Shown piece after piece: positions 4,865-57,584 of a stretch of DNA of 64,000 nucleotides. A program made the position numbers and the translations under genes. Positions within the stretch are counted from its first letter, which is position 1. Each line of letters begins with the position of its first letter. The notes beneath the pieces are model-generated. The model was given only the letters and a program-made list of their open reading frames with translations. It did no database searches and was not told where the DNA came from. Source of the DNA: Candidatus Woesebacteria bacterium RIFCSPLOWO2_01_FULL_44_24b (GTDB taxonomy: Bacteria > Patescibacteriota > Microgenomatia > UBA8517); contig MGHM01000020.1 of NCBI GenBank assembly GCA_001793235.1, positions 33,677 through 97,676 of the forward strand. The letters run 5' to 3'.

Positions 4865-4906
4865 GAAGCAATTATATTTGTAACCAACATCACAATCAAG
4901 AGGAAG

Positions 4907-5353
4907 TTAGGGATTGGTCGTAATGTAATTACATGCTATCCCACAGGAAGCACAATTCGAGGTATCCATGGCACTGGACACATTATCCAAAGAAGCGCAG
5001 AGGGCATAACTTGCACTCGACAAGAGATTGTATGAATATATTCTTGACGGGCTTTCGGGGTCCCCGGGCTTGTTATCCATATAAACACTGGCCGAGGTGC
5101 ACGCGGGGGTGGAGCCGTTCCCTACTAGGTTTGCTCCGGTTGTAACTGCGTTGTAGTAGGCCGCAGTTGGGTAAACTCCACAGTCGGCTCGATATTTTTC
5201 AAGCCCGGAGGCAATTAATGCCAAGTCGGCCTTTCTTCTCTCATCGCGGGCTTGCTGCCGCGAGCCACCCAAAGCAAAGGCCATTGCCGAGAAAACAATT
5301 ATTATTATGACGATAACTACCAATACCTCAAGAAGAGTAAAGCCTTTGCGCAT
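4907..5353 (-). CDS. Type IV pilin / pseudopilin (prepilin-type N-terminal cleavage and methylation domain)
   Basis: N-terminus 'MRKGFTLLEVLVVIVIIIIV' shows the G|FTLLE prepilin peptidase site followed by a hydrophobic helix; C-terminal Cys pairs. Confidence 0.8.
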   Translation of the reverse strand: MRKGFTLLEVLVVIVIIIIVFSAMAFALGGSRQQARDERRKADLALIASGLEKYRADCGVYPTAAYYNAVTTGANLVGNGSTPACTSASVYMDNKPGDPESPSRIYSYNLLSSASYALCASLDNVSSAMDTSNCASCGIACNYITTNP

Positions 5354-7938: not shown

Positions 7939-9294
7939 AGGTAGCGAACCGCATCGTCGATATGGACTCTCGGATGCGACTACTCTGTTATCCCCGGCGT
8001 AGCTTTTATCTATTAAGCTCCGTCCGCACCCATTGCGAAACGGAGGATCACTAAGACCTACTTTCGTACCTGCTTGGCCCATCGGCCTCGCAGTCAAGCT
8101 GGCTTATACCTTTGCGCTTACCCCACGATTTCCATCCGTGGTTAGCCAACCTTTGCGTCCCTGCGTTACCTTTTTGCAGGGTACCGCCCCAGTAAAACTG
8201 CCCATCTGACACTTTTCCCGGACGCGTTTCAAGCGTCCCTGAGTAAGATCTGCCACATTTTAAAGAGAGGTGTTACATTGGCGTCCCGCAAAGCGGGACT
8301 CCCTCTTACGCTAGACAATTAAAATGCACAGCTCAATGCCAGAATACAGTAAAGCTGCACGGGGTCTTTTTGTCCTGGTGTGTGTAGGCCGCGTCTTCAC
8401 AGCCATCGCAATTTCGCCGAGTGATAGTTTAAGACAGTTGTCAGCTCGTTACGCCTTTCGTGCGGGTCTGAACTTACCAGACAAGGAACTTCGCTACCGT
8501 AGAACAGTTATAGTTACTGCTGCCGTTTACTGGAGCTTCATTTCAGAGCATCCCGCCAAAGGCGGGGCACCCATCCACTTAACTTACCAGCACTGGGCAG
8601 GCGTCAGCCCGTATACTTAAGCTTTCGCTTTTGCACGGACCTGTGTTTTTGGTAAACAGTCGACTGACAATCGTTAGCTGCGATCCCTACACCATAAATG
8701 GTGAGGGACAGGACATCTTGCGAACTTACGTCCAGCTAATTTGCCGAGTTCCTTAAACTACCTTCTCTCGCTCGCCTTGGTCTACTCGACCAACCCACCT
8801 GTGTCGGTTTGCGGTACGGCTCGCTTTGATACTCACTGCGAATTTTTTCTTGTAAACTGAAACGGTCAGAATTGGCGAACTCTCGCTCACCTCTGCATCG
8901 CCGCTTAATTAATCATCTTGATGGGTTTTCCAATCAAGACTATCTCACGGCTTACACTCCAATCAATAAGAAGCTCTGACGCTCCAATTCAGTCAATCCC
9001 CAGTTGCATGCAGTCCCTTGCGGGTGCAAACGCATCAAAACAAGTACGGGAATATTAACCCGTTATCCATCGACTACGCCCTTAGGCCTCGCCTTAGGTG
9101 CCGACTTACTCCCGGAGGACGAACCTCGCCGGGAAAACCTTGGGTTTTCGGCGTCCCGAATTCTCATCGGGATTTCACGCTACTCATACCGGCATTCTCA
9201 CTTCCAAGCGCTCCACCATGGTTTCCACCACAGCTTCACTGCACTTGGAACGCTCCCCTACCACCTCGCTCGCAGAGCGAGAAATTCTAAATTT

Positions 9295-9425
9295 AAAATT
9301 TGAAATTTTTAATCAAATAAAAATACTAAAATCTAAACTTCAAAAATTAGAAATTAGATATTAAAAATTGATTTAAAATTAAAAACTAAAAACTAAAAAT
9401 TCTCGTTCTACGAACGAGATCCGTA
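9295..9425 (-). other. AT-rich expansion of ~130 nt inside 23S rRNA at the helix-45 position
   Basis: Between the conserved flanks 'GGGCTAAAGTATACTACCGAAGCTACGG' and 'GGTAGGGGAGCGTTCC' (reverse-complement sense), the normal ~25-nt helix is replaced by '...aaaatactaaaatctaaacttcaaaaattagaaattagatattaaaaattgatttaaaattaaaaactaaaaactaaaaat...'. Bases 9382-9410 of the tail are a noisy ~7-nt period rather than a clean tandem repeat. Confidence 0.5.
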
Positions 9426-9537: not shown

Positions 9538-10923
9538 TTTTGGAATTCCACTTCCTTAAACACTGAGTATACATTTTGGGACCTTAACTGACGGTCTGGG
9601 TTGTTTCCCTTTCGTCTCTAGAGCTTAGCCCCTAGAGACTGTCTAGTCCGTTAATGTGATTGTAATTCGGAGTTTGATTAAATCGCCTTGGTTTCCCTTG
9701 GCGACCCATTCAGTAGCTCTACCTCCAATCCACCTAGCGGACCACGGTGCCCATACACCTTTCGGGGAGAACCAGCTATCTCCAGGCTCGTTTGGCATTT
9801 TACCCCTAGCCACAAGTCATCCGAGCATATTGCAACATACAACGGTTCGGCCCTCCTTCCCGCTTTCGCGGGAATTCAGCCTGCTCATGGCTAGATCGCC
9901 TGGTTTCGGGTCTATCATGCACTACTAATTGCACTATTAGTACTCGCTTTCGCTGCGCTTTTGAGCCATAAGCCCTTAAGCTTGCAGTACACGATAACTC
10001 GCCGGTTCATTCTTCAATAGGCACGAGATCACTCGCGCTCTGCGCGAAAGTTACGAAGTGATTAAGTTAATAAGTTATTAAGTTTTGTTTTACTTAATCT
10101 CTTAATCGCTTAATGTCTTCATATCTTTTGTGCAAAGCACAAGCTCTCTCGGTTTGTCTGCAAACAGTTTCATGTTCTATTTCACTGTGCGTTCCGCACT
10201 TCTTTTCACCTTTCCCTCTCGGTACTTGTTCACTATCGGTCCTTTGTTATATTTAGCCTTGGAGGATGGTCCCCCCAGATTCCCACAGATTGTGACCGTG
10301 GTACTCAGGTGCCCACTAGGCTGATAATTAGTTTTGCTTACGCGAGTTTCACGCTCTTTGCTCATCCATTCCAGAATGTTCTGCTACCAATTATCAATGC
10401 CATATCGTGAGTCCTACAACCGATCACCCCATTAGATAAAAATATCTAACGGGGCAAAATTTGGGCTGTTGCCGTTTCGCTCGCCGCTACTTAGGCAATC
10501 TCGTTGATTTCTCTTCCTCACCCTACTTAGATGTTTCAGTTCGGATGGTTCCCTCGCCTGCAGCTATATTCCGGTAAACCGGAAATTTTACCACAGTGTG
10601 GCCCAGGATGAACTGGGCCAGGTTTCCCCATTCGGACACCGCCGGATCAAAGCTTCGTGGCAGCTCCCCGACGACTTTCGCGGCCATGTACGTCCTTCAT
10701 AGGTAACAAAGGCCAAGGTATCCACTGTTTGCATTTTTTAGACGCTTGATTCCGTACAATCCCGCTGAGCGGGACGGACACAACTCCCTCGAGTTGTATA
10801 CGGAATCGCCTTTTCTTCCAGTTGTCAAAGTACAAAATATTAGAGTTAAAGAGTAAAAGAGTAAAAGGTAAAAGTTTGGTCTTTCACTCTCTTGCTCTCT
10901 CGCTCTTTCACTCTAAGTGGGTG

Positions 10924-10997
10924 GACCTGGGCGGACTCGAACCGCCTACCTCCTCATTGCAAATGAGGTGTTCAAACCTGCTAAACTTCAGGCCCAA
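10924..10997 (-). tRNA. tRNA-Ala (anticodon UGC)
   Basis: Reverse complement 'GGGCCTGAAGTTTAGCAGGTTTGAACACCTCATTTGCAATGAGGAGGTAGGCGGTTCGAGTCCGCCCAGGTCCA' folds as a cloverleaf with a G3:U70 pair and anticodon loop 'TTTGCAA'; it sits immediately upstream of the 23S gene. Confidence 0.85.
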
Positions 10998-11040
10998 GTC
11001 TTACAGATTTTAAAAATAAATGTGCATGGTTTTTTCTTCG
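10998..11040 (-). promoter_or_regulatory. Candidate promoter region for the tRNA-Ala/23S/5S unit
   Basis: AT-rich segment 'catgcacatttatttttaaaatctgtaagactt' with a -10-like 'TAAAAT' ~12 nt upstream of the tRNA-Ala 5' end, lying downstream of the upstream gene's terminator. Confidence 0.3.
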
Positions 11041-11075
11041 AAACAAAAAACCGAGCTTCTAAGCTCGGCAATCCA
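11041..11075 (-). terminator. Rho-independent terminator for the 11186-12436 gene
   Basis: Minus-strand sense 'CCGAGCTTAGAAGCTCGG' is an 8-bp GC-rich stem, followed by 'TTTTTTGTTTCG'. Confidence 0.6.
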
Positions 11076-11185
11076 TGAGTCCTATCCTTTTTCAGGCACG
11101 CACTAGGTGCGGCTTTGTTGTAATAGCAGATTAAAAGAAATTCTCATTAAGTTTCCGAACTTAGGTAAAAAGTATTATATAGTAC

Positions 11186-12436
11186 TTACAGAGCCCCGTC
11201 AACCAAGCTCCAAATGTCCCTGACTCCATCGCTTTTTGGCTTTCTTGGGGAGCTCATCATCTTTTCAAAGACTCCCGCCTTCAAGCACCATTGTATAAAT
11301 TCTGCAGATTTTTTGGGGTTTGCCATCAGTGGTATGCCTCGCCATTTTTTCGCTTTAGCTATCACACTCTTGTCTCTCGCCCAGAGCCGTTCTTGCTCTT
11401 CTTTTGATGGAATTAAATTGTTCCTAGCCAGAAACCAGAGATTATCATACTCCTGCCTCCCAACGGGTTGAGTAAAAAGAAGGATTACGCCACCTGTTTG
11501 CCTTGGAGTATAAAGGGCCTTAAAGGCCTGCTCGCTTGGCTTGGTCACCTCAAGTGCAAGTGTATTTTTTTGCATTACCTTCTCATAGCCCACTACCACC
11601 AGTCTGTCGTAGGAATGGCTATAAACTTCGGTGTATGCAAGCTTACCCATCTCAGCCAAAAACTGCTTAGTATAGGCCGAGTCCCTCGAGGTCACATAAA
11701 ACCTGAAACGGCTCTCAAGCTCATTTAGCCTCATGGCAAGTTCGCGGTAGAAATCAAGCCCAACGGCCGCACCTGAAACCGGCAAGCTCACTTTTATTTT
11801 GACCTTACTTTGAGCTTGAGCCTGCTTAAACTTGTACTCAAACTTGGACTCTTTGAGCTCATGCCCGAGTTTCAGGCTCAAGGGATAATGAACTACCTCA
11901 GTGTGAGGAGCGCCAAGCCTGAGCCCAGTGAGCCTACTCGGAACTATGGTGAGGTCAGCCCCGGGTACGCTCCAGGCTTGTTGGGGGCTATCATCGGTAA
12001 CGACCACAACGAGCTTGACCTCAAATCCTTCAGCCTCAAGGTCAGGTTTGATGGCACTAATCTGGTGGGCTAGCCCAAAGTGCGTAGACACAAATACCAC
12101 TCGTTTGGGGCTGGGCTTAAGGCCTGTGAGCATAGCCTCAACCTGAGGCTGAAGTGCCTTCGCCCTTAGCCTCAAGATGTGTGTATAAATGCTCGTGAAA
12201 ACACGCTCAGCAACCCCGTACTGCAGGGCTTCGGCAAGCTCACGGAAAACCGGATTATTTGAGCTCAGGCGGTGCATAAAAGTGGTGGTCGAGTCCAACG
12301 AGCTAAATAAGCTCACCCTAGCACCCTTGGGCAAGCCCTCCATCAAGGCATAAGCTACTCGAAGGTGCCCAAGGCCAGCCTTGGCAAAAGTAAGCACAAT
12401 GAGCGTGTCGGGTGAGGTAAGATTTTCGAGAGCCAT
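11186..12436 (-). CDS. Hypothetical protein, possibly a GT-B fold glycosyltransferase (MurG/MGDG-synthase-like)
   Basis: 416-aa ORF with the N-terminus 'LIVLTFAKAGLGHLRVAYALMEGL', a Rossmann-like start with a conserved His. GC content is visibly higher than in surrounding genes. The assignment is weak. Confidence 0.45.
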   Translation of the reverse strand: MALENLTSPDTLIVLTFAKAGLGHLRVAYALMEGLPKGARVSLFSSLDSTTTFMHRLSSNNPVFRELAEALQYGVAERVFTSIYTHILRLRAKALQPQVEAMLTGLKPSPKRVVFVSTHFGLAHQISAIKPDLEAEGFEVKLVVVVTDDSPQQAWSVPGADLTIVPSRLTGLRLGAPHTEVVHYPLSLKLGHELKESKFEYKFKQAQAQSKVKIKVSLPVSGAAVGLDFYRELAMRLNELESRFRFYVTSRDSAYTKQFLAEMGKLAYTEVYSHSYDRLVVVGYEKVMQKNTLALEVTKPSEQAFKALYTPRQTGGVILLFTQPVGRQEYDNLWFLARNNLIPSKEEQERLWARDKSVIAKAKKWRGIPLMANPKKSAEFIQWCLKAGVFEKMMSSPRKPKSDGVRDIWSLVDGAL

Positions 12437-12487
12437 AATTCAGTTTACATTATTGACAAACATACATACATATGTAATTATGTATGT

Positions 12488-12748
12488 ATGCCAAACCTAG
12501 TCAGAACGACCATCTTACTTCCCGAAGATTTAGCTCAAGCAGCCAAGATGAAGGCATTACAAGAGAAAAAATCCCTCAGCGAGCTGATTCGCGAGACACT
12601 TGAGCCCAGAGTTTCCGGAGCCAAACCTGCTAAACCAGCTGGCGACCCAATGGCCAGCTTGGGAGTGTTTAAGATTGGAATCGATAAAATATACAACAGA
12701 CGATCTGAGCTATATGAAGAGCACCTCCAAAACAAACTCAGTGGCTAA
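12488..12748 (+). CDS. Ribbon-helix-helix antitoxin (VapB/CopG-like)
   Basis: 86-aa protein 'MPNLVRTTILLPEDLAQAAKMKALQEKKSLSELIRETL' with an RHH signature; its stop codon overlaps the downstream PIN-domain gene start. Confidence 0.55.
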   Translation: MPNLVRTTILLPEDLAQAAKMKALQEKKSLSELIRETLEPRVSGAKPAKPAGDPMASLGVFKIGIDKIYNRRSELYEEHLQNKLSG

Positions 12749-13178
12749 ACAAGTACTTTTCGACACAAATGTGCTTATATATTCGCTCGACTCAGCATCG
12801 CCTCAATTTGAGGCTGTGCGCAAATTGTTTGCCAGAGTAAAAAATGGTGAGATTGAGGCTGTTGCCGCTCATCAAAACATCGTTGAGACAGAAAATGTAC
12901 TCGTCAATATCTATAAGAAGAGCTTAGATGAGGCAAGAGACGCAATTGACAATGTCTTGTTTAGCTTCAATTTCAGCTTAATCTGTCCGCTTCCGAGCAC
13001 AATTTCGTTATATCACAGACTAATCCAAAGGTACTCAAGCAAGACTAAAATTGATATCTATGATATTTATTTAGCCTCGACTACGCTCGTTAACGGAGTA
13101 GACTCGATAGCAACATACAATACCAAGCATTTCGAAGGCCTTGGGATTACTGTTATTTCTCCTGGAATTGGTACTTGA
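12742..13178 (+). CDS. PIN-domain ribonuclease toxin (VapC family)
   Basis: 'VAKQVLFDTNVLIYSLD...' is a PIN N-terminal motif with conserved acidic residues. GTG at 12742 overlaps the antitoxin stop codon ('GTGGCTAA'); an alternative in-frame ATG lies at 12714. Confidence 0.65.
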
Positions 13179-13335
13179 CACCTATCACTCTCTGTTGTAT
13201 ATTGCTAACTATCAATTAGTACTTCTTTAATCTTCTATATAACGATTAGCTTAATCTACTAAATAAATATTAGATTTTAAACATCCATTTGATTTTCCCG
13301 GAGCGGGGTTTTTGTTTCAATAGACTTGTTTTAGA

Positions 13336-13376
13336 GGAGGGGCATCCTGTTCCTTTTGGGAACAGGGCTCCCCTTC
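13336..13376. terminator. Long imperfect hairpin between convergent genes (candidate bidirectional terminator)
   Basis: 'ggaggggcatcctgttcc ttttg ggaacagggctcccc' has an 8-bp perfect inner stem plus a GC-rich extension, followed by a second hairpin 'tctgagacacagtctcaga'. Confidence 0.3.
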
Positions 13377-13514
13377 TGAGACACAGTCTCAGAACTTTTC
13401 CATCGGAAACGAACAATAGAAAGGTAAACAATTGCTGTTTACTCATTACTATTTATTAGTGACCGGTGAAGTACCTTAACATTGCAAGCGATTCTGTGAA
13501 GCTCATCAAAGAGC

Positions 13515-14084
13515 CTAACTCTTTTTGCTAAATGGCAGTAAATCTTTTTTGGTAAGAAGTACGGAGCGAAGGCAAGTTTTCAAAAGTGCATAGCTGGGCT
13601 TAGCCTGAAAGCCAATGTAACAAATAGTTTTCCCGGCCGCCTGGCATTCAGAAACTGCTGGAATTAAATCCGAGTCGGAGCTAATTAAATATGCGGTGTC
13701 GTATTTATCACGAAAGGCACCAACCAAAAGTCGGGTTGCGATATTTACATCAACGCCCTTTTTGTGGTAAGCCTTAGCAACCTTAAGCATATAACCAAGC
13801 TATACCTCAATGCCTTGACCAATAAGATTGCCAACAAGAATATTCTGAGAGCGAAATAGTTCGTAACTTTTAGGATTATTTCTCTCAGTTCTGATAGCGC
13901 CGACAAAATAAACCGAACGTATCAGTTTTTCGGTCTTAACCAGAGACTTAAAAAAGCCCATATATGAAAACTTAAGGCTACCTCTGATACCAAGATCTTT
14001 AAGGCGGTGGTAAAAATTACTGCCGTCCACAAAGACAACTGCACGAGGTTTGGAGGATTTCTTGCTCATTATTAAATGTAGCAC
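13515..14084 (-). pseudogene. NYN/LabA-like (PIN-related) domain gene interrupted by a single in-frame TAG
   Basis: ORFs 13800-14084 ('AVVFVDGSNFYH...YFVGA...') and 13515-13790 ('KKGVDVNIATRLL...AYLISSDSDLIPAV...GKTICYIGF') are in the same frame and together form one LabA/NYN domain. They are separated only by TAG (13800-13802) plus three codons ('IEV*LGYMLKV'). TAG is used as a normal stop elsewhere, for example in radA. Confidence 0.6.
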
Positions 14085-14299
14085 AAAAATACCCCGTGAC
14101 TAAAAAATCACGGGGGGAGTTAGTAAAAGTATAGTAGCAAAAAGAAGTTGATATTTCAAGTATTAAAAAGGCTTATACAGGCTTTTTGACGAGCTTCACA
14201 GTAAGAAAGCCCCACGTCGCTCCATTCGGAGCTATGTTAGGGGTGAAAAAAGAAAGAAGTGCTCGCCATGTGGCGAAGCTTTACGTGGACTTCTTGTGG

Positions 14300-14420
14300 G
14301 TCACACAGAGGTTAGGAATGAAGTAGCAAGTAGAATGTAGAAAGTAGTATGGGAATTTTGTATCTCCCTTGCTACATGCTTCATGCTACATACTACATGT
14401 TTCCTAGCTTCTCTGTGACT
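14300..14420. repeat. ORF-less inverted-repeat copy of the heptamer-repeat IVS-cassette ends, with an extra outer inverted repeat
   Basis: Left arm 14321-14357 'aagtagcaagtagaatgtagaaagtagtatgggaatt' and right arm 14371-14400 'gctacatgcttcatgctacatactacatg' are inverted copies of the inverted repeats flanking 57583-57951. An outer imperfect inverted repeat flanks them ('tcacacagag', 14301-14310; 'ctctgtgact', 14411-14420). Confidence 0.5.
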
Positions 14421-14460
14421 CAATAAGGAGTTCACTAATCATGTCCAAGGAGGACAAGAA

Positions 14461-15777
14461 ATGCGTACATGGATTATCGGATTAATTGTGGTAGTCGCCA
14501 CACTTTCTGTCGGCCTACTGCCAGCAATGGCGTGGGATGGGCATGTCGATGTATCTTATTCGTGCGACGGCGGGCTCACGTATTACGAGGCTTCTGCTTC
14601 GTCGTCGTGGCCTGGTTTTCAGGTTGATTGGGGGGGAGATTCCCATCGAGGGAGTCTCTCTGAAGGAGAATCTGCATCAGGCACAGCCGTGTTTTTCTGG
14701 CCGGAAGTAGGTCATCACTTTACGGCTTCATGGTCGGCAGAATTTCAGGTAGAATGCCAATCTGAAGAACCAAACCATCCGCCACGGCGCACCGTTGTGC
14801 ACCACAACAACCGACCTCGCCCATTCAACACAATGTGCGTTTTGAACAACCCAGATGGGCTGTTCTCAAGCGGTGGCGTTGAGGGGCTCAACGGCGCGTT
14901 CTGGACCTACCAGAATGATGGCGGCTATGAGGGGAACCTTGTGGTTGCAAACATCAACTGGCGAACGTCTGACGGCACAAGTTTCGTGCTAGCGGGAGAC
15001 CCTTCTGGGAATTCCACACAGGCTAGGGTTGTCGACTTAGACAACGCCAATCCCTGGTCACGCTGTGAGTTGGTTCAGCCCGAGTCGCAAGGCCAAGGTG
15101 GTGGTCCAGCAAATCTTCCTGAAATTCAGGATTGGTGGTGGGACGTAGTCTACACCAAGGAAGAGGCTGAACTTATCTACTTGCGAGTGTCGAACATTTT
15201 TGAGGATGAACGTGATCCTGCATTCTGCTGGGAACACGCTCCTGAAAAACCACCCGCGTGGGTACGTGTCCGTATCATGAATGGTGAGGAGCTCATCATG
15301 AGTTTCGAGCCGACTTTCATTGAGACGGAGCGCCGGCCCAACAATATTAGTTGCTGGGAATGGGAGTACAACCTTCTACCTGATTGGCATGTGCTTTATG
15401 ACGCCCAGTTCGTAGGGGTTCCGCTTATCACTGAGCGAGTCGACATCTCATATCGTGGGATGGAAAAACCGGCAGCTGGATGGTGGAATGTTCACGAAGA
15501 AGGTCTGGCTCTCTACCCCGGTGACGATGAGTCCCTGCTGTCAGCAGAGATGAACTTCGCACTCAATATTGAGAGCGAAGAAGTTGCTAAAGTAGAAGCC
15601 GAAGAAACGGTAGAATACACCGTTGTCCCAACAGACACGCTGAGCGGCATTTGTGCGCAATTCGGCGCAAACCAGATTTATGGCCAGTCAGGCTGTATCG
15701 AGCAGGTCAAACTGCTTAATGGCCTTGAAGGGTCAATGATCACGGTTGGCCAGGTGCTGATCGTCCCGCAAAGCTAG
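14461..15777 (+). CDS. Secreted protein with a C-terminal LysM peptidoglycan-binding domain
   Basis: Signal peptide 'MRTWIIGLIVVVATLSVGLLPAMA'; a Shine-Dalgarno sequence 'aaggagga' upstream; the C-terminus 'YTVVPTDTLSGICAQFGANQ...VKLLNGLEGSMITVGQVLIVP' is a LysM domain. GC content and codon usage are atypically high for this window. Confidence 0.7.
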   Translation: MRTWIIGLIVVVATLSVGLLPAMAWDGHVDVSYSCDGGLTYYEASASSSWPGFQVDWGGDSHRGSLSEGESASGTAVFFWPEVGHHFTASWSAEFQVECQSEEPNHPPRRTVVHHNNRPRPFNTMCVLNNPDGLFSSGGVEGLNGAFWTYQNDGGYEGNLVVANINWRTSDGTSFVLAGDPSGNSTQARVVDLDNANPWSRCELVQPESQGQGGGPANLPEIQDWWWDVVYTKEEAELIYLRVSNIFEDERDPAFCWEHAPEKPPAWVRVRIMNGEELIMSFEPTFIETERRPNNISCWEWEYNLLPDWHVLYDAQFVGVPLITERVDISYRGMEKPAAGWWNVHEEGLALYPGDDESLLSAEMNFALNIESEEVAKVEAEETVEYTVVPTDTLSGICAQFGANQIYGQSGCIEQVKLLNGLEGSMITVGQVLIVPQS

Positions 15778-16308
15778 TCTCACTAAAAAGTGAAACGAAC
15801 ACCTCCCTTTCCATTTGCAATAGAACGCAAATCCGAATACTACGCTTGAAAGACAACGTGGCTAGCCTTTACGGCAAGTAGGATTATGCAGTCTATAGCA
15901 TACAACGATAGCCGCTAACACAGGGCGAATCAGGGACTTGTTAGTAGTTTTACTTCTCTTTCTTTCCTAGCTTCGGCTAGTTAAATCGCATTGCAACTCG
16001 CTCAGCTTAAGCTGACGCACGAAATTTCCGTTCGCGGAAACTGGTGCTCGGTCTAAGATCCGTAGCGAGTTTGACTTTATTTCAGGTGGAGATAGCTCTG
16101 CTTGAGGAAGATTGGAAATTTGGGAAATCCGTGCGGATTTCATTTTAGGAATTTATTCCTAATCTCTAAACCATTTTCTCCTTTCATCTTTTCCTCTCGC
16201 CTCTCTATCTCCCCCTGTACCATTTACCGGTGTATGCCGGTACTGAAGAGCTCAAAAGAGCGAAATGGTAGTACTTTAAAATCTAAAACGAAGTTGGTAT
16301 ATTGGAGT

Positions 16309-16623
16309 ATGGCAAAGAGGAGAACGCTGACTCAGGCCGATGTTGATGTTTTGAAAAAAGAAGTCTCATCTGCGGTATTGAAAGCAGTAGTACCTCAGAT
16401 AAAGACAGCCGTGTCTTTGGTAATAACAACGGAGTTATCCGAACAGGAAGAAAAATACGAGAAGAAGCTCGAGGAGTTCAAAAGCGAGTTCTTTGACAGG
16501 GTTGATCCTATTCTCAAGGAAGTTCCTGCAAGCCGTGAAGAACGGACAGTTCAGGCACATCAAATCGCCAATCTTTCAGACAGAGTTGAGAAGGTTGAAA
16601 AACACCTCGGACTGGCAGCTTAA
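16309..16623 (+). CDS. Hypothetical coiled-coil protein
   Basis: 'MAKRRTLTQADVDVLKKEV...EEKYEKKLEEFKSEFFDRV...' is charged and helical. The ORF-track entry (16102-16623) probably overextends the 5' end, and the start codon is uncertain. Confidence 0.35.
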   Translation: MAKRRTLTQADVDVLKKEVSSAVLKAVVPQIKTAVSLVITTELSEQEEKYEKKLEEFKSEFFDRVDPILKEVPASREERTVQAHQIANLSDRVEKVEKHLGLAA

Positions 16624-16740
16624 CCCAACTTCATAATAGTGAGTAGTGCAAAATGGTTAGCCATTTCTAGTTGACCATTTTTCATTACTCACTACCCAGT
16701 TATAACAAATACTAGATAGTAGAATTACTAGATAACAAAA

Positions 16741-16770
16741 ATCCCCCATCGAAAGGTGGGGGATTTTTTG
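16741..16770 (+). terminator. Rho-independent terminator
   Basis: 'ATCCCCCATC gaaa GGTGGGGGAT' is a 10-bp stem, followed by 'TTTTTTG'. Upstream at 16634-16700 lies a separate 20-nt inverted repeat ('tagtgagtagtgcaaaatgg' / 'ccatttttcattactcacta'). Confidence 0.55.
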
Positions 16771-16821
16771 TGGCTTAAATTTACTTATCAGCCTCGGTAT
16801 GGTACTATTTTCGTACTTCTG

Positions 16822-16893
16822 GGGTGCGTGGCTCAGTGGTAGAGCGTCGTCCTGATAAGACGAAGGTCGATGGTTCGATCCCATCCGCACCCA
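16822..16893 (+). tRNA. tRNA-Ile (anticodon GAU)
   Basis: 'GGGTGCGTGGCTCAGTGGTAGAGCGTCGTCCTGATAAGACGAAGGTCGATGGTTCGATCCCATCCGCACCCA' has anticodon loop 'CTGATAA'. This is the tRNA normally found in the 16S-23S spacer; here it is on the strand opposite to the rRNA genes. Confidence 0.85.
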
Positions 16894-16921
16894 CCCAACC
16901 TACTTCTGATACAATTAAATC

Positions 16922-19054
16922 ATGGCTGAGCTAACTACTCTTTTTCTCAAAGTCCCCCGCGGCAATGAATATACTCCTGAGGCGGCGCAGACTTTTTTAT
17001 CCGCCTTAACCCAGCTTAATTTTCTTTCCCGCTGGGAAAGACTCACCGGCAGGCACCCTCAGCCTTTGGCCCTTGAGATTGTCCTTCATAACCAACAAAT
17101 CCGCTTTATGATTGCCGCAGACGCGGAGCTTGCGCCATTTGTGGAGGCGCAGCTCCAAAGTAACTACCCCCTCGTTATAGTCGAAAAAACTAAAGACCCA
17201 TTGTCTCAAGCAGGAATTTTAAACACGCAAACATTAAAACTTGCCCACGGCAATTACTATCCACTTATGACTTACCCCAGTTTTACCGATGTGGACCCGT
17301 TAAGCTCGGTGCTTACAGTTTTGTCCAAAGCCCCGGCGGAGGAGCTAATAATAATTCAAATTGCGCTCGAGGCAATAAGCGGCTCGTGGCAGCAGGCTAC
17401 TCAAAAAACTCTTGAGCGTGGCATTCGTGACCGCGAAGGCAACACCACTCCCCTTCCGGACGCCGCGATTATAAATGAGAAAATAAGTTTTCCCGGCTTT
17501 GGAGTGACTTTGCGAATTGCAGCCAAGCAAAAACATACACTAAATACTTTAGTCAGTGCCTTTGGGGTATTTACAAAAACGGGCGGCAATTCCATTTCTG
17601 TTAAAAAGAAGGGCTTGCTTTCCAAAGACCGGACGCTTGATTACCTTGTTTCAAGGCGCGTTAGCGGAAGCGATGTTTTAAATATTGCCGAGCTCGCGAC
17701 TCTTTGGCACTTGCCAAGCGAGAAAGTCAAAATCAGCTCGATTGTCTGGGGCAATGCAGTCCTTTCAGAGGCTCCGGACAACTTGCCATCGGCCCTTGGA
17801 ATGAGCGAGGATGAGCGCAAGGAAGTCAACTTTTTTGCCAAAACTCAGTTTAAAAATACCGAGGCGATATTCGGGCTAAAGGATGTGGACCGCAGGCGCC
17901 ACGTCTGGGTTGTCGGCAAAACCGGAACCGGTAAGTCAACTCTCATTGCCAACATGGTTATTGATGACCTGAAAAAAGGCCGGGGTGTGGCAGTCATTGA
18001 CCCACATGGCGACCTTTGCGAGACGGTCCTCAACTACATTCCAAAAAACAGGATTAACGAAACTATATACTTTAACCCGGCGGACAGAGATTATCCAATT
18101 GTCATTAATCCCCTGGAAGTAAACACCAAAGAGGAAGCGGAGCTTGTAGTTTCCGGGCTTATGTCAATTTTTACCAAAGTCTGGGCCAACGTCTGGTCTG
18201 CCCGCATGGAGTATATACTTAGAAACTCGCTTCTGAGTTTAGCCGAAATCCCGGGTTCAACGTTGATTGATGTCTTGAGGCTTCTGTCCGAAGAAGATTA
18301 TAGAAACAAAATGGTTCAGAAAATGCATGACGAGACCTTGAAAAGCTTCTGGGTCAATGAATTTAATAAAATGCCAGACAAACTCCGCGCCGAGGCAGTC
18401 TCGCCGATTCAAAACAAAGTCGGCCAATTTGTGACTTCCCCCATGGTAAGGAGTATCTTAAGCCAGTCAAAAAGCACAATATCTCTGGGACAGGTTATGG
18501 ACCGCGGCATGATATTTTTGGCCAACCTTTCCCAGGGGCGCTTGGGCGAGGACAATGCGGCCTTACTCGGGGCAACTCTCATCACTAAGTTTCAACTGGC
18601 CGCAATGCACAGGGTTGATGTCCCCGAGAGTGAGCGCCATGATTTCCACTTGTTTGTGGATGAGTTCCAAAATTTTGCAACTGACAGCTTCATCAAAATT
18701 CTCTCAGAAGCCCGGAAATACAGGCTTAACTTGATGCTTGCCAACCAATACATGGGGCAAATTCCAGAGGGTGTCCAGAAGGCAATTTTAGGAAATGCCG
18801 GTTCACTCGTGAGCTTTTCGGTTGGTGCTGACGACGCGGCCATTATTCACAAAGAATATGCCGAGGTTTTCTCACAAAATGATTTGGTGAATTTGGCGAA
18901 CTTCCAGATTGCGGTGAAGCTTATGATTGATGGCCACAGCACCCGACCGTTTCTGGCCCACACTCTCCCGCTCCCTGCATCAAGTAACCTGAATAAACAA
19001 AAAGTATTGGAGGTTTCAAGACAGAGATGGAGTAAGAAGATTAAAGAGGGTTAG
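16922..19054 (+). CDS. FtsK/TraD/HerA-superfamily P-loop ATPase (TrwB/TraD-type coupling-protein-like ATP-binding domain; no N-terminal transmembrane segment)
   Basis: Walker A 'VVGKTGTGKSTLIAN' followed by 'VAVIDPHGDL', and Walker B 'HLFVDEFQNFAT'; 710 aa. The architecture matches conjugative coupling-protein or DUF87-type ATPases. Confidence 0.6.
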   Translation: MAELTTLFLKVPRGNEYTPEAAQTFLSALTQLNFLSRWERLTGRHPQPLALEIVLHNQQIRFMIAADAELAPFVEAQLQSNYPLVIVEKTKDPLSQAGILNTQTLKLAHGNYYPLMTYPSFTDVDPLSSVLTVLSKAPAEELIIIQIALEAISGSWQQATQKTLERGIRDREGNTTPLPDAAIINEKISFPGFGVTLRIAAKQKHTLNTLVSAFGVFTKTGGNSISVKKKGLLSKDRTLDYLVSRRVSGSDVLNIAELATLWHLPSEKVKISSIVWGNAVLSEAPDNLPSALGMSEDERKEVNFFAKTQFKNTEAIFGLKDVDRRRHVWVVGKTGTGKSTLIANMVIDDLKKGRGVAVIDPHGDLCETVLNYIPKNRINETIYFNPADRDYPIVINPLEVNTKEEAELVVSGLMSIFTKVWANVWSARMEYILRNSLLSLAEIPGSTLIDVLRLLSEEDYRNKMVQKMHDETLKSFWVNEFNKMPDKLRAEAVSPIQNKVGQFVTSPMVRSILSQSKSTISLGQVMDRGMIFLANLSQGRLGEDNAALLGATLITKFQLAAMHRVDVPESERHDFHLFVDEFQNFATDSFIKILSEARKYRLNLMLANQYMGQIPEGVQKAILGNAGSLVSFSVGADDAAIIHKEYAEVFSQNDLVNLANFQIAVKLMIDGHSTRPFLAHTLPLPASSNLNKQKVLEVSRQRWSKKIKEG

Positions 19055-19768
19055 TTATCTGTTGTTCCACCAGTCTCGAAGTTCATCAATCACTTCTCCC
19101 GTTTCTTCCCTTAACTCACCAAGTATTTCTTCGGCCTGCTCGGCTGTGTCATTTAAGAATTCCCGTGCCTCATCTGTAAAATCAGGGCACTGTATCGTTT
19201 CGCCTGTGTGATTGATAATTTCGTCCAAGGCATAATAGGGTGCCGTAACTTCCCCACCAGGTAATGGTAAGGCCTCATCGTCAAGCACTCGTCCCGAGGT
19301 TGCATTAATCCTGAGGCCGTATGGCAATGCTTCACTCTCGGTAACTGGCCAGTAATATACATTAAACTCGTCGTCTGTTCTTGCAAGAGGCTCTCTTTTG
19401 CCCAAATGTGGTTCTGCCATTTCTAAAGTGCAATTCACATTATCCATAAAACCGTATACTTGGCCTTGCCCGTCTGCCAAGACTGCTACAACTCTGTTTC
19501 TATCGGGACCGAATATATCTTGTCTATACTCCAGATAGCCTATAATTCTGGGCGACTCTAGGGCGACTTGACCTTCTCTTCTATCTATCGCAGTTAATGC
19601 TCGAATATTTGCTGCATCTGTTGCCGCATACGGATCAGTCTCTGGAGTTGCTTCTTGTGTTGGATTTTGCTCTAGAGTTTGCAAGAAGACAGGAGCGAAG
19701 AAGCTTACTCCTCCTGCGGCCGCTAACTCAATAAACTCTCTTCTTGTTAAACCCTTTCTTTCTTCCAC
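19055..19768 (-). CDS. Hypothetical exported protein (twin-arginine-like signal)
   Basis: N-terminus 'MEERKGLTRREFIELAAAGGVSFFAPVF' resembles a Tat signal (T-R-R-x-F-I); acidic C-terminal region. Confidence 0.5.
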   Translation of the reverse strand: MEERKGLTRREFIELAAAGGVSFFAPVFLQTLEQNPTQEATPETDPYAATDAANIRALTAIDRREGQVALESPRIIGYLEYRQDIFGPDRNRVVAVLADGQGQVYGFMDNVNCTLEMAEPHLGKREPLARTDDEFNVYYWPVTESEALPYGLRINATSGRVLDDEALPLPGGEVTAPYYALDEIINHTGETIQCPDFTDEAREFLNDTAEQAEEILGELREETGEVIDELRDWWNNR

Positions 19769-19788
19769 AACTTATTATACTTGAGGTG

Positions 19789-20964
19789 TCAATTCGTAAA
19801 TTCAAAACTGGCCAGCATATTGTCAAAGACTTGTTGTTCCCCTTTATCAACATTATCATCCCAGGTCATCTGAATAACCGTATTTTTATACCAGATAACC
19901 ACATATGCCCGCCACTTGCCGGTCAGCTCTCCTTGAATAACCTGTGCATCCCCACCGCCTAGTTTTTTAAGTTCAATCTTTGGCGGGTTACTCCAGCCGG
20001 ACAAGGTTCTCGTTGATGAGATAATCTCGCTTGCGGTAAGAGCGGCATTAGTAAGGTTACTTGAAGTCTGAATAACTAAGTTGTTTACTGTCTTATTACT
20101 CGCGTCGCGGCTTATTTCTGACTTATTGGCATAGATCCCCTCTTTTTCGTCTTTCTCGGCGGTCAGCGTCCATTCTGACGGATACTTGATGGTGTAATTA
20201 AAAGTAGTATTTTCAAAAGTCTGCCAGCCTGAGGTGTCGACCAAAAAAATAATACTATCTATGATTTTTTGGAATTCTTCTTCTTTTTCTGGAGAATCAA
20301 CAAAAAAATTTATTATTAATTCATTGACAACAATCTGCCACTGATCATCGAATGAAGCTTTTACAGCATCTTTACCTCCTACTCTTATCTCTTCAACTTC
20401 CGCTTCTGTAAAATCCGTAAACCCTGGTTTTTCTGGATAAATAGTCAGTAATTCTGTATTGTCTTCCCCAATACTCACAGAATTTTCCTTTTCATCAAGC
20501 ACTTCATAATCCTCAGGGATAGTCATCTGAACTAATAAATCTATATTTTTATACAGCTTTGTGGGCACAGGTGTGGGCGTGGGAGCCGCAACCACCAGAG
20601 CTTCGGTTACTAAAGGGGTGATAGTTGGGGCCGGCGCGCGCATGGTGTAATTATTTCCCGTAACGCGGGCTACAAAATAAATAGTGGCAACCAGAAGTAC
20701 CGCCGGGATGAGAAACAAAAGCTTTCGCAAGGGATGATGCTTGACCATAACATTGGGGCTTGACGATGATGGTGGCGGTGGCACAATTTCCACAACCGGC
20801 GCCTCCGCCACTGGTTGGGGAACTACTTCAACAGTCGGTGTAATCTCTTGGGCTGGCACCTCCTCAACACTTAAATTTGGACGATGACTTGTATCAAAGC
20901 CCTCCGGCGAGCCCCGGGCAGAATCACTTGCCCCGAGCGTAGTCTCTGACGAAGTGGGGTCCAT
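19789..20964 (-). CDS. Single-pass membrane hypothetical protein with a Pro-rich N-terminal region
   Basis: 391-aa ORF; Pro/Val/Glu-rich N-terminus, a transmembrane segment 'LLFLIPAVLLVATIYFVA', then a large extracytoplasmic domain. Confidence 0.5.
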   Translation of the reverse strand: MDPTSSETTLGASDSARGSPEGFDTSHRPNLSVEEVPAQEITPTVEVVPQPVAEAPVVEIVPPPPSSSSPNVMVKHHPLRKLLFLIPAVLLVATIYFVARVTGNNYTMRAPAPTITPLVTEALVVAAPTPTPVPTKLYKNIDLLVQMTIPEDYEVLDEKENSVSIGEDNTELLTIYPEKPGFTDFTEAEVEEIRVGGKDAVKASFDDQWQIVVNELIINFFVDSPEKEEEFQKIIDSIIFLVDTSGWQTFENTTFNYTIKYPSEWTLTAEKDEKEGIYANKSEISRDASNKTVNNLVIQTSSNLTNAALTASEIISSTRTLSGWSNPPKIELKKLGGGDAQVIQGELTGKWRAYVVIWYKNTVIQMTWDDNVDKGEQQVFDNMLASFEFTN

Positions 20965-22060
20965 GGTTATTCATTGTATACCAATTAATTCCACCTTGTC
21001 ATTCCCGCGAAAGCGGGAATCCACACTAATAATCTGGTCTGGTTACAATAGATTCCGGATCAAGTCCGGAATGACAATGAAGTTTCTCTTGGCAGCCTGA
21101 CAGCGATTGAAATATGGAACCCTACGACCCCATCACCATTTCAAGTGACTAAATTAGTTTTCACTTCAAATTAAAGTCTTGCTAATTTAATAACCAGAAA
21201 TGGTGAGGGGAAGAGTTCGGTTTATTTTCCCCAAAACCGTGACTTTAAAGGGGGGTGTTAATCCCGTGAGATAGTCTTGCGACATCTAACAGGACGTGTG
21301 TTTATTCACACTCCTTAGAAAGGAGGTGATCCATCCGCTCCTTCCAGAACGGATACCTTGTTACGACTTAAGCCTTATCGCTAGTTTCACCTTCTTCCGA
21401 TCACTCGGAATTCGGGTGCCCCTAACTTTACTGCCTTGACGGGCGGTGTGTACAAGACCTGAGAACGTATTCACCGGGATTTAGCTGACTCCCGATTACT
21501 ACCAATTCCGCGTTCATGAGGGCGAATTGCAGCCCTCAATCCCCACTGAGACATCGTTTATGGGATTAGCTCCGCCTTACGGCTTGGCAACCCATTGTCG
21601 ATGCCATTGTATTATGTGTGTAGCCCTGGACATAAGGGCCATGCTGACCTGACGTCGTCCCCACTTCCTTCTGATACAAAGATCAAAAAGTCTCCTATGA
21701 TTATTCAACATAGGACAGGGGTTGCGCTCGTTACCCCACTTAAGGGAACACCCCACGGCACGAGCTGACGACGGCCATGCAACACCTGTGCTATCATCCC
21801 AAATAAATTTAGGATCATCCCAATTTTCATCAGAACTAAAACGATAGCATGTCAAGTCCAGGTAAGGTTCTTCGGTTTGTCTCGAATTAAACCACATAAT
21901 CCACTGGTTGTGCAGGTCCCCGTCAATTCCTTTGAGTTTTAAACTTGCGTTCGTACTCCCCAGGCGGTCCGCTTCACGCGTTAGCTTACGCCCCTCTCCC
22001 GCTAAGCGGGAGAAAAAAGCTAGCGGACATAGTTTACGGCTAGGACTACAGGGGTCTCTA

Positions 22061-22928
22061 CTATATTGTTACATTCTCTAATTAATAGAGAAGATCTTGT
22101 CATTTCTGCAAGATTCTACATATTACTATGCAGCTCGGACTATATCATAACCCGTCCCGTTAGATAATTTATCTAATGGGATTGGGTCCCGACATGTAGT
22201 CTCTACGGGGTCTGTATTCTCGCTGAATAAGGAAGAAATTTATATTTAAATTCCGGTAAAATGAATTTGAAAACTTGTTTTCGAAGTTTACTCAAACTTT
22301 GTTTAGGAAAATAAATTATATCTCTACCCTTATTTTTGTGAGTTAAAGTTTCAATCTCAAAATTAGTGAGTATTGCTTCTTGCAACCTTTGTACATCTTT
22401 CGCAGTAAATGAATGAGTTTGGATGGACAGTCCAGCGTATTCTGCCGAACCATCATCCATAATCCATACTGCAAAAGAAAGTGGATTGCTTAGCAATACA
22501 TTTATGTTTGCAGGCACAATCTTTTTAAAAGACGGGTAAAATAAGTCATAATATGCAGTAAATTCTGGATGGGTATGAGTGACGAATTCGGCAAATTTAT
22601 AATCTTTTTTACCAACTCGCTGCTCAAAAACATTAACATCCATTGAAATAAAATTTGCAAATACAAAATATTTATATAAAACTAATGGAAGTTGATTTCT
22701 CGAGTGCTTAATATGCAATCGAGCATTCTTTCCATGAAGTTTTATTGCTCCATCTCCTAAAAGTGTCCCTACCAACACAGCCTTTTGAGTTTCACTTAAA
22801 CAGACTTCCCTCGGTATTGTCCTCATAATTTCAGTATACTAAAGATATACCGAAATAGTAGGATATTCACCGATACAGTCAGTTTTTCTCACTGCTAATT
22901 ACTTAGCAGGGGGACTAGAGTTTTACTC
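22061..22928 (-). mobile_element. Group I intron in 16S rRNA at the E. coli position ~788 site
   Basis: Exon 1 ends '...GGGAGCGAAAGGGAT' (E. coli '...GGGGAGCAAACAGGAT'), and exon 2 resumes 'TAGAGACCCCTGTAGTCC' (E. coli 'TAGATACCCTGGTAGTCC'). The 5' exon ends in U and the intron ends in G; the ~868-nt insert contains an intact LAGLIDADG ORF. Confidence 0.7.
22203..22826 (-). CDS. LAGLIDADG homing endonuclease (intron-encoded, intact)
   Basis: 207-aa protein with both LAGLIDADG motifs ('AVLVGTLLGDGAI' and 'SFAVWIMDDGSA'), lying entirely within the 16S intron. Confidence 0.8.
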   Translation of the reverse strand: MRTIPREVCLSETQKAVLVGTLLGDGAIKLHGKNARLHIKHSRNQLPLVLYKYFVFANFISMDVNVFEQRVGKKDYKFAEFVTHTHPEFTAYYDLFYPSFKKIVPANINVLLSNPLSFAVWIMDDGSAEYAGLSIQTHSFTAKDVQRLQEAILTNFEIETLTHKNKGRDIIYFPKQSLSKLRKQVFKFILPEFKYKFLPYSARIQTP

Positions 22929-23842
22929 CATCCCTTTCGCTCCCCTAGCTGTCGTTCCTCAGCGTCAAGATTTGCTTAGTCACCCGCCTTCGCCTTCGGA
23001 GTTCCTGTCGATATCAACGGATTTCACCCCTACACCGACAGTTCCAGTGACCCCAACATTCTTCAAGCACGTAAGTATCGCGTCCCTTTCCCCAGTTAAG
23101 CTGGGGTCTTTGAAACGCGACTTTACGTGCCGCCTACGAAACACTTTACGCCCAATAAATCCGGGCAACGCTTACACCCTTCGTATTACCGCTGCTGCTG
23201 GCACGAAGTTAGCCGGTGCTTATTCTACCCCGCCTTTCAGAGGGGTCAAAAGAAGTTTACAACCCGAAGGCCTTCATCCTTCACGCGGCGTCACGGCATC
23301 AGACTTGCGTCCATTGTGCACGATTCCCTGTTGCTGCCACCCGTAGGTGTATAGGCCGTGTCTCAGTCCTATTCTGGGGGTACGCGCTCTCACGCCCCCT
23401 AACCGTCGTAGTCTTGGTAAGCCATTACCTCACCAACAAACTGATGGTGCGCAGGTTCCTCCATCGGCGGGCAGTTAAGCCCTTTGCCCTTGCGGGATTA
23501 TGCGGTATTACCCCACCTTTCGGTGGACTATTCCACACCAATGGGTAGATCCCTACGTGTTACTCAGCCGTTCGCAACTGTTCCGGCAAGCCGGAACCGT
23601 TCTACTTGCATGCATAAAGTACGCCGCCAGCGTTTACCCTGGGCCAGGATCAAACCCTCAATTAAGTGGATTTATATTAAAATCCTGGGACCAATTCCAA
23701 TCGCTGTCAGACTGTCAAAGAGCTTTAGCTCGAAGACCCCTTCGTAGTTCCGGTAAAACCGGAACGAAGTGGGGTCAAAGTTCTAAAGTAATCTTGAAGT
23801 TATTAACCCCGCCTTGTTCGGCTGGCAAGTTAACTTGATTAG

Positions 23843-31922: not shown

Positions 31923-32459
31923 ATGTATATGGTCAAACATGGGTCAAAGCACTTGAGGCATAACACCCCTACCCAGGAAGAGCTAAAGGAGATCAAAAGA
32001 AACCCGATTTATCTGGTTTTAGATAATGTACTTGATACATATAATATCGGTTCGCTTTTCAGGCTCGCGGACGCCATAGCGGCCGAAAAGTTATATATTT
32101 GCGGAGACTCCGAATATCCGCCATCGTCAAGAATCCACAAATCTGCCGTCGGCACCGAAGAATGGGTGCCTTGGGCGAAAGCAGACAAAGCAATTGAGGT
32201 TATTAAGAGATTAAGAGATAAAGGAGTACGGATAATCTCGGTTGAACAAAATCCCCAAGCTACCAGCTACAAACTACTAACTCCCAATTTTCCTTGTGCC
32301 ATTGTTGTGGGCCACGAAACCAAAGGTGTTTCAAAAGAGGTTTTAAAGCTCTCCGACATTATTGTTGAGCTCCCAATGTACGGCGTCAATAAATCATTTA
32401 ATGTATGGGGATCAGCAGCTGTGATTGCCTACAAAATACTCGAAACTTTAGGAAGATAG
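31923..32459 (+). CDS. SpoU/TrmH-family RNA 2'-O-methyltransferase
   Basis: 'IYLVLDNVLDTYNIGSLFRLADAIAAEKLYI' and the C-terminal knot motifs 'VELPMYGVNKSFNVWGSAAVIAY' of SPOUT methyltransferases. Confidence 0.8.
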   Translation: MYMVKHGSKHLRHNTPTQEELKEIKRNPIYLVLDNVLDTYNIGSLFRLADAIAAEKLYICGDSEYPPSSRIHKSAVGTEEWVPWAKADKAIEVIKRLRDKGVRIISVEQNPQATSYKLLTPNFPCAIVVGHETKGVSKEVLKLSDIIVELPMYGVNKSFNVWGSAAVIAYKILETLGR

Positions 32460-45115: not shown

Positions 45116-45421
45116 CTATCGCCTGCGCTCCTCTTGTGTGTCCGCTTTCTGGGCTTTCAGCTGAGAAAGCTTCCACATAAATAGTTTTCCTTTGGAGCGG
45201 ACACCCGGGGCATCACTTACAAAACTGCGAGCAGCCTCTAGGAACCCTCTTGGAGTAGTCTTGGCAAGCTTTATATAAAGCGACTTGTTTTTTTCATCTC
45301 CAAGCTCAACCGCTAAGTCATAGCCATACTTTTGAAATTCACGGCTAATAAATTTATCTTTATCAAAATTTTTTAGCCCGGAGGGCCAAGCTTTGCTTAT
45401 AATGTCGCCAATTTTTTGCAT
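45116..45421 (-). CDS. Hypothetical basic protein
   Basis: 101-aa ORF whose 5' end overlaps the pth 3' end. Confidence 0.35.
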   Translation of the reverse strand: MQKIGDIISKAWPSGLKNFDKDKFISREFQKYGYDLAVELGDEKNKSLYIKLAKTTPRGFLEAARSFVSDAPGVRSKGKLFMWKLSQLKAQKADTQEERRR

Positions 45422-57545: not shown

Positions 57546-57584
57546 ACATGTAGAATGTAGCATGTAGAACGTAGAATGGGAATT
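57546..57584. repeat. Left terminal inverted repeat of the IVS-like cassette (heptamer 'NATGTAG' units ending 'ATGGGAATT')
   Basis: 'acatgtagaatgtagcatgtagaacgtagaatgggaatt' abuts the stop codon of the four-helix-bundle ORF at one end and the GT4 start codon at the other. Confidence 0.6.

Follow-up and report, generated by a model that had tools for sequence, protein, structure and literature searches.

The imperfect palindrome at 14.3 kb of the DNA analysed here, a stretch of 64,000 nt that we call the window, is very probably an ORF-less relative of a family of cassettes that encode a four-helix-bundle protein of Pfam family PF05635 (23S_rRNA_IVP) between inverted arrays of 7-nt repeats. 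A member of this family that carries its gene lies at 57.5 kb in the same window. We read the palindrome, with a probability of roughly 0.6, as an ORF-less hairpin of the type of the rRNA intervening sequences (IVSs) that stands outside the ribosomal genes, is passively carried and, by analogy with those IVSs, would be cut by RNase III once transcribed. The locus bears on two long-standing questions, the origin and movement of rRNA IVSs and the role of the S23p/PF05635 protein.

Architecture of the palindrome

The core of the palindrome consists of two inward-facing arrays, A1 and A2, of four GTAGNAN heptamers each, ending in GGG and CCC on the two sides of a short loop (Table 1). Array A1 has TAG stops in all three frames, and A2, read on the minus strand, runs GTAGTAT GTAGCAT GAAGCAT GTAGCAA and then GGG, one of its units being degenerate. 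An earlier note on this DNA had reported an inverted pair of both cassette arm types at 14300–14420, separated by 13 nt and nested within a second imperfect inverted repeat. Direct reading confirms the pair and the nesting; the spacing is to be corrected to a 12-nt loop, or to 10 nt between the extended arms, which an inverted-repeat search places at 14297–14354 and 14365–14422 (58 nt, 74% complementary). The outer inverted repeat, which encloses the core, is unrelated to the heptamers, has no second copy within the 64-kb window and has no counterpart in the 57.5-kb cassette.

With at most one mismatch allowed, GTAGNANGTAGNA is matched 24 times in the window against 2.3 expected, a count reached in 0 of 100 shuffles, and the pattern GTAG...GTAG...GTAG is matched 11 times against 0 in 50 shuffles. 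RNA folding of 14290–14430 gives −61.4 kcal/mol (z = −7.8) for the plus strand and −46.9 kcal/mol (z = −6.0) for the minus strand; in the predicted fold the inverted ends form a long stem, a feature typical of IVSs. At the palindrome Rfam has no family, either at the gathering threshold in a scan of the whole window or at E ≤ 10 in 14050–14480, and its sole matches are sub-threshold ones to generic microRNA-precursor hairpins.

The element is intergenic, between divergently oriented ORFs, 3.3 kb from the tRNA-Ala and 23S genes, and so outside the apical loops of 23S helices 9, 25 and 45 where IVSs sit. The 12-nt loop between A1 and A2 leaves no PF05635 ORF there, and the ATGGGAATT remnant opens an ORF of only 25 codons. 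With the source contig extended by 9.4 kb and 9.3 kb, no further GTAG arrays appear, and this is the one palindromic copy in about 83 kb. All eight assemblies with the LysM locus downstream of the palindrome are 100% identical there, as are the seven with the cassette, so they carry no presence/absence information.

Table 1. Positions of the palindrome, the cassette, the solo arrays and the 23S hairpins in the window
Feature	Position	Strand	Remarks
Whole imperfect palindrome, ORF-less hairpin	14297–14422		Inverted-repeat search and RNA folds
Outer left arm, GTCACACAGAGGTTAGGAAT	14300–14319	+	Pairs with 14400–14419; non-heptameric
Array A1	Units 14323–14350, GGG 14351–14353	+	GTAGCAA GTAGAAT GTAGAAA GTAGTAT, then GGG
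Loop, AATTTTGTATCT	14354–14365		12 nt, between GGG and CCC inner ends
Array A2	CCC 14366–14368, units 14369–14396	−	CCC, then TTGCTAC ATGCTTC ATGCTAC ATACTAC
Outer right arm, TTTCCTAGCTTCTCTGTGAC	14400–14419	+	
Cassette arm A5	57550–57580	+	GTAGAAT GTAGCAT GTAGAAC GTAGAAT, then GGG
Four-helix-bundle gene	57583–57951	−	122 aa; Pfam PF05635 23S_rRNA_IVP, E = 8.6e-37
Cassette arm A6	57950–57977	−	GTAGCAA GTAGAAA GTAGTAT GTAGCAT
Solo array A7	32260–32283	−	GTAGTTT GTAGCTG GTAGCTT, then GGG; fourth G at 32256
Solo array A3	45671–45701	+	Antisense in peptidyl-tRNA hydrolase CDS
Solo array A4	56944–56975	+	Antisense in interdomain linker of family-4 glycosyltransferase (gene 56445–57545, −)
ORF-less AT-rich hairpin	9271–9407	−	137 nt; arms of ~7-nt repeats; 23S helix 45 apical loop
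ORF-less hairpin	10042–10139	−	98 nt; arms of 8-mer tandem repeats; 23S helix 25 apical loop

A PF05635 cassette with matching arms

The cassette at 57.5 kb consists of the four-helix-bundle gene and the two arms that frame it tightly. The last AT of A6 and the following G make up the ATG of the gene; A5 begins about 3 nt past its stop and ends 4 nt before the ATG of a glycosyltransferase. In the mRNA sense, A6 and A5 are predicted to form a stem of about 27 bp that closes around the ORF.

Palindrome and cassette agree in their heptamer unit, in their GGG/ATGGGAATT inner ends and in the inward-facing orientation of their arms. GTAGNA(T/A)GGG closes all GTAGNAN arrays in the window; its exact form GTAGNATGGGAATT is confined to window positions 14344 and 57571. 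Arrays A1 and A6 moreover have the units GTAGCAA, GTAGAAA and GTAGTAT in common, in the same order, so that the similarity extends beyond a GTAG periodicity. These agreements bear out the suggestion of the earlier note that the palindrome is an ORF-less counterpart of the cassette. The further suggestion, that the ORF was lost, describes only one of its possible histories, since no four-helix-bundle remnant came to light in the loops of ORF-less hairpins when all six-frame segments were searched with a profile.

Homologues of the downstream glycosyltransferase with 75–77% identity were traced to their contigs, in which the gene order around it is conserved. In two of these relatives (L135 and L139) the stop of a 5′-3′ exonuclease gene abuts or overlaps the glycosyltransferase ATG, with neither PF05635 gene nor arms; in the window precisely A6, the ORF and A5 are interposed between the homologous exonuclease stop and the glycosyltransferase ATG. 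The alignment with these syntenic relatives, which lack gene and arms alike, shows the cassette to be an insertion. It lies between two operon genes and outside rRNA.

Heptamer arms across PF05635 genes

Heptamer arms are a general feature of PF05635 genes. We scanned JGI metagenomes with an alignment of the four-helix-bundle protein and kept 80 loci (54–67% identity), in nearly all of which, as judged by eye, tandem 7-nt repeats reach the ATG and inverted repeats overlap the stop. Across 72 loci, self-identity at a lag of 7 nt is 0.57 upstream and 0.56 downstream of the gene, against about 0.26 at other lags or inside the ORF. A conservative detector found an array at the ATG and/or the stop in 62 of 78 loci, with a background of 0.47 arrays per kb.

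The repeat unit differs between lineages (GAAT in 27 loci, GTAT in 22, GATT in 12, GTAG in 4, GAGT in 3, and others). Both arms use the same unit in 38 of 48 loci, where about 14 would be expected by chance on a rough estimate from unit frequencies, and this covariation between arms supports a paired stem. The unit also follows protein similarity, if weakly: pairs of loci with the same unit have 60.9% identity and pairs with different units 56.4% (permutation p < 0.0005).

ORF-less hairpins in other genomes

Copies are not confined to this locus, there being seven arrays in the window (A1, A2, A5, A6 and three solo arrays inside genes) and at least 119 loci in a scan of the genome collection with GTAGNANGTAGNANGTAGNANGGG, for which a rough chance expectation over the entire collection, made uncertain by the uneven distribution of GTAG-like words, is a few tens at most. 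Among the matches listed, 33 are palindromes of the form (GTAGNAN)n GGG - loop - CCC (NTNCTAC)n with loops of 4–123 nt, and a four-helix-bundle gene is enclosed or adjoining in 5 of the 119. Hairpins of the GTAG type without an ORF occur in Chloroflexota, Firmicutes, Bacteroidota, Acidobacteriota, Nitrospirota, Gammaproteobacteria and Patescibacteria; viral contigs, inspected as a check for a phage vehicle, gave only 12 matches. In most other contigs examined, the ORF-less hairpin uses the unit of the local cassette (for example, L159, L165, L170, L179 and L217). Where arrays are separated by 330–400 nt, the apparent cargo is an ordinary small host gene in one case (L099), and the stretch contains no ORF in another (L083).

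The distance from an ORF-less hairpin to the neighbouring ORF ends is mostly no more than about 16 nt, and often the first arm contains the host stop. By a simple long-ORF heuristic, which is not gene prediction, 34 of the 60 classifiable hairpins lie between co-directional, 20 between convergent and 6 between divergent ORFs; the divergent setting, that of the 14.3-kb copy, is thus the rarest for the family. In two contigs several GTAG hairpins occupy successive spacers between the genes of an ordinary operon, rhodanese-TusA-GNAT-ThiF-PALP in one (L112, 1290–3188) and acyl-CoA dehydrogenase-HdrD-like-EtfA-EtfB in the other (L118, 1392–7006), with host ORFs terminating within hairpin arms in both. 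A cassette array of the integron attC kind was considered for these two contigs and rejected, the genes between the hairpins being ordinary metabolic operons.

The two arms of an element draw on a common repertoire of units without mirroring each other exactly. Of 162 variable unit positions, 105 are complementary, compared with 58 ± 5 after shuffling across elements and 102 ± 4 after shuffling the order of units within an element. As complementarity is no better than in the within-element shuffle, stem pairing is no more than approximate.

Solo arrays inside coding sequences

Three arrays in the window lie singly inside genes. A3, a perfect four-unit GTAG array with a GGGA end, encodes SLATYYMLLST in the peptidyl-tRNA hydrolase gene (45397–45912, minus strand). 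The hydrolase aligns gap-free to solved hydrolases across this segment, which means that A3 replaced native sequence with no change in length; the array resembles a templated patch more than a simple insertion. The same gene has a second 7-nt array, TTGTAAA × 4.4, at 45791–45821. Array A7 lies antisense in a SpoU methylase gene (31923–32459, plus strand) and encodes QATSYKLLT.

The linker that holds A4, from YPP to YLTGGR of the glycosyltransferase, is hypervariable across 60 homologues. Different lineages have translated repeat elements at this one site: GTAT-type units in L135 (4574–4611), GTAGNTA units flanking a small palindrome in L139 (4605–4634) and, in L137, a palindrome some 60 nt long (within 4001–5134).

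Solo arrays inside long ORFs are antisense in 41 of 41 cases. Because 7 is not a multiple of 3, three GTAG units place a stop in every frame of the strand on which they read 5′ to 3′, which accounts both for this strict orientation and for the position of all but one of the 33 listed palindromes outside long ORFs.

Hairpins in and near the rRNA genes

Two further ORF-less hairpins interrupt the 23S gene of the window. Alignment to the Rfam large-subunit rRNA model places them in helices 25 and 45, the classical IVS sites. A similar hairpin with 8-mer arms (AGAGTAAA / CTCTCTCG, 10842–10914) lies between tRNA-Ala and the 5′ end of the 23S gene. The AT-rich 7- and 8-mers of the rRNA hairpins differ from the GTAGNAN unit of palindrome and cassette.

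About 10.3 kb of protein-coding DNA (10996–21319) stands between the 16S and 23S genes, both of which are on the minus strand. It contains PIN and NYN genes, the orphan gene for a LysM protein, a gene for a TrwB/VirD4-like ATPase and, on the opposite strand, tRNA-Ile (16822–16895). Just past the end of the window come another TrwB-like gene and a gene for a tyrosine integrase (L235). The 16S gene (21319–23665) is 2.3 kb long and holds a LAGLIDADG ORF (22203–22826), as is typical of rRNA insertions in the candidate phyla radiation. Rfam also identifies a group I intron (67 bits) at 63683–63887 on the plus strand, beside tRNA-Met.

The LysM gene and its surroundings

The palindrome ends 39 nt upstream of the ATG of the LysM gene, a distance of 61 nt when taken from the heptamer core. 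The gene has a GC content of 0.52–0.55 against about 0.41 in its flanks, and its product has a hydrophobic N-terminus and a C-terminal LysM domain, in agreement with the GC-rich gene for a secreted protein described previously. A horizontal origin is plausible. Among 5.8 billion sequences a homologue search returned only the protein itself, and a promoter scan found no plus-strand consensus upstream of the gene.

Several other features surround the palindrome. A putative 14-codon upstream ORF (14442–14486, plus strand) with its own AAGGAG overlaps the LysM start, and a putative 46-codon ORF with a TTG start (14186–14326, plus strand) terminates with the TAG that belongs to the first GTAG unit, in keeping with the host stops seen within first arms elsewhere; both are read from the sequence. 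On the minus strand, a strong terminator-like hairpin (14092–14115; a 10-bp stem with 6 GC pairs, followed by TATTTTTG) stands directly upstream of the start of an NYN fragment, and a promoter-like site lies at 14159–14131. A short, unannotated minus-strand transcript may run between these signals and the palindrome. The NYN-domain gene (13515–14084, minus strand) appears split, with a 91-aa ORF that matches profile positions 72–138 only and, upstream of it, a 94-aa ORF with no Pfam match; it may be a frameshifted pseudogene.

The setting raises the alternative, touched on in the earlier note as a regulatory palindrome, that the palindrome is a dedicated cis-regulatory hairpin of the 5′ leader, maintained because it controls the stability or translation of the LysM mRNA. 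It lies close upstream of the ATG and abuts the AAGGAG of the 14-codon ORF, the base of its predicted stem pairs CUUCUU with AAGGAG, and the plus strand, which is the LysM sense, folds 14.5 kcal/mol better than the minus strand. However, the Shine-Dalgarno sequence of the gene itself, AAGGAGG at 14447–14453, is outside the hairpin, and the folding advantage of the plus strand is not general in cassettes or intercistronic hairpins. The family as a whole shows no bias of orientation with respect to its flanking genes and is found mostly at 3′ ends or between cistrons, the palindrome matches no Rfam family, and the gene, an orphan, has no homologue in which conservation could show. We regard dedicated control of LysM as unlikely.

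Proposed mechanism and alternatives

Our preferred reading, that of a passively carried hairpin of IVS type, suggests the following course. Transcription, most likely within the 5′ leader of the LysM mRNA, would produce a long stem-loop that tolerates shifts of register. This stem may be a substrate of RNase III, as the stems of rRNA IVSs are, in which case cleavage would process or destabilise the transcript, a role distinct from that of a terminator or operator. For the RNase III step taken by itself, argued from that analogy, we would put the odds a little below even. Because each arm carries stops in all three frames, on either strand, the element would also block read-through translation from either side.

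An alternative at the level of DNA is that the heptamers are bound by the four-helix-bundle protein or by a host factor, the palindrome being an operator or a site related to recombination or replication. The conserved GTAG cores, together with variable positions that are not complementary in register, suggest that it is sequence, more than exact pairing, that is kept, and the unit tracks the similarity of the four-helix-bundle protein, although weakly. Nor is a significant strand asymmetry of stem stability seen in a comparison based on G:U asymmetry: sense stands against antisense at 43 versus 30 for cassette stems (p = 0.20) and 17 versus 12 for intercistronic hairpins (p = 0.72), so that a role in RNA is not favoured over one in DNA by this measure. 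On the other hand, relatedness of the hosts can account for the association of unit with protein, and the arms have a consistent inverted orientation and a shared unit, both of which a stem needs. ORF-less hairpins far outnumber the four-helix-bundle genes near them among the matches listed, and binding data for PF05635 are confined to diversity-generating retroelements. We give a DNA-level site as little credence as LysM control.

The earlier note had suggested a MITE-like derivative of the cassette without its ORF; a MITE in the strict sense would be a non-autonomous transposon moved by a transposase that acts in trans. The palindromic ends are indeed similar to the ends of an element in this genome that has an ORF, the cassette is a discrete insertion, and there are many ORF-less copies for each copy with an ORF. 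Against this, no target-site duplication is seen at the cassette junctions or at the 14.3-kb element, whose flanks CTTCTTGTGG and TCAATAAGGA hold no direct repeat; the arms are tandem heptamer arrays of variable length and not fixed terminal repeats; and the cargo is an Avd/S23p-like four-helix-bundle protein, not a transposase. As hairpin loops are also free of gene remnants and the source contig has the single palindromic copy, the MITE label is not supported, and we consider such an origin very unlikely. Finally, a bidirectional intrinsic terminator or a chance palindrome of low complexity, which a long stable hairpin in an intergenic region could bring to mind, is scarcely credible, as a terminator scan does not list the palindrome and no T-run follows the stem 3′ on either strand, while chance is excluded by the shuffles and by recurrence in many genomes.

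Implications

To judge from this locus, elements of IVS type are not tied to rRNA: the same design occurs between ordinary genes, with or without an ORF, in many phyla. Inverted heptamer arms, a start codon phased by the array and stops in three frames make up a simple search signature. The cassette offers a clean pair of empty and filled sites for studying insertion, and the elements are candidates for RNase III processing and for recognition of the repeats by the protein. In annotation, heptamer arrays may pass for CRISPR-like or simple repeats, and some are translated within essential genes. Genes of the 23S_rRNA_IVP family have been reported inside cas loci (PMC3936711); we speculate that some of these might be cassette insertions rather than part of CRISPR function.

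A more far-reaching proposal, which we hold to be improbable as it stands, is that heptamer hairpins are the ORF-less majority of a pan-bacterial selfish family whose autonomous members encode a PF05635 protein that recognises arrays of 3–5 units and promotes copying. The four-helix-bundle protein, pentameric in solved relatives, would then help to copy the element into hairpin loops, stop/start junctions and the tips of rRNA helices. If true, this would explain the origin of rRNA IVSs, the lineage-specific units and the length-neutral patches of array inside genes.

Comparison with known systems

Like the rRNA IVSs of Salmonella, Leptospira and Coxiella (PMC4990558) and the rRNA insertions of the candidate phyla radiation (PMC11270868), the present elements are extended stem-loops formed by inverted ends, some with a PF05635 (S23p) ORF in the loop and others without. 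The parallel is closest for the IVS in helix 45 of Coxiella, in which three to four GACAGAT heptamers directly precede the S23p ATG inside the stem, as tandem heptamers precede the ATG of the present cassettes, and RNase III cuts at the first heptamer (PMC4990558). Unlike rRNA IVSs, the palindrome lies in an intergenic leader and the cassette between operon genes; RNase III excision is established for rRNA IVSs and would extend to the 14.3-kb element by analogy. The S23p/PF05635 protein is still termed functionally uncharacterized (PMC4990558, PMC11270868). In the open-access literature we found heptamers noted for Coxiella only, and nothing on PF05635 cassettes with heptamer arms, whether of the GTAG type or in general, on extra-ribosomal ORF-less copies or on in-gene arrays; an earlier account may exist elsewhere.

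The intergenic heptamer repeats of cyanobacteria and Beggiatoaceae (for example, TAACTGA) are likewise tandem 7-nt arrays that often end at a start codon and are scattered across phyla. They differ in their unit, in being almost all direct (169 direct sets versus one inverted) and in that no link to PF05635 is reported for them (PMC4679880).

The cassette protein and bAvd (PF22296), an accessory protein of diversity-generating retroelements, are members of one four-helix-bundle superfamily. The cassette protein scores 39.2 bits as bAvd-like (cutoff 40) against 126 bits as 23S_rRNA_IVP, and among the window genes annotated there is neither a reverse transcriptase nor a template/variable repeat pair.

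Correia elements of Neisseria and REP/BIME elements of enterobacteria are, like the present family, short palindromes between operon genes and at 3′ ends. Both are co-transcribed as mRNA hairpins, which in Correia elements are cut by RNase III and in REPs stabilise the upstream mRNA. Correia elements differ by their defined terminal inverted repeats and by a TA duplication. REPs have one GTAG head and depend on REP-associated tyrosine transposases (RAYTs); the present family differs in repeating GTAG every 7 nt in an array. A link to REP and RAYTs through GTAG was considered and set aside, as sister elements use GAAT, GTAT or GATT units; with GTAG only one of several units in the family, the resemblance to REP in this motif is probably a coincidence.

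Rickettsia palindromic elements introduce repeat-derived sequence that is translated in essential genes, in tolerant loops. The translated repeats in the peptidyl-tRNA hydrolase, glycosyltransferase and SpoU methylase genes resemble them in this respect, and differ in that the in-gene arrays are single-armed and always antisense and leave the length of the hydrolase unchanged.
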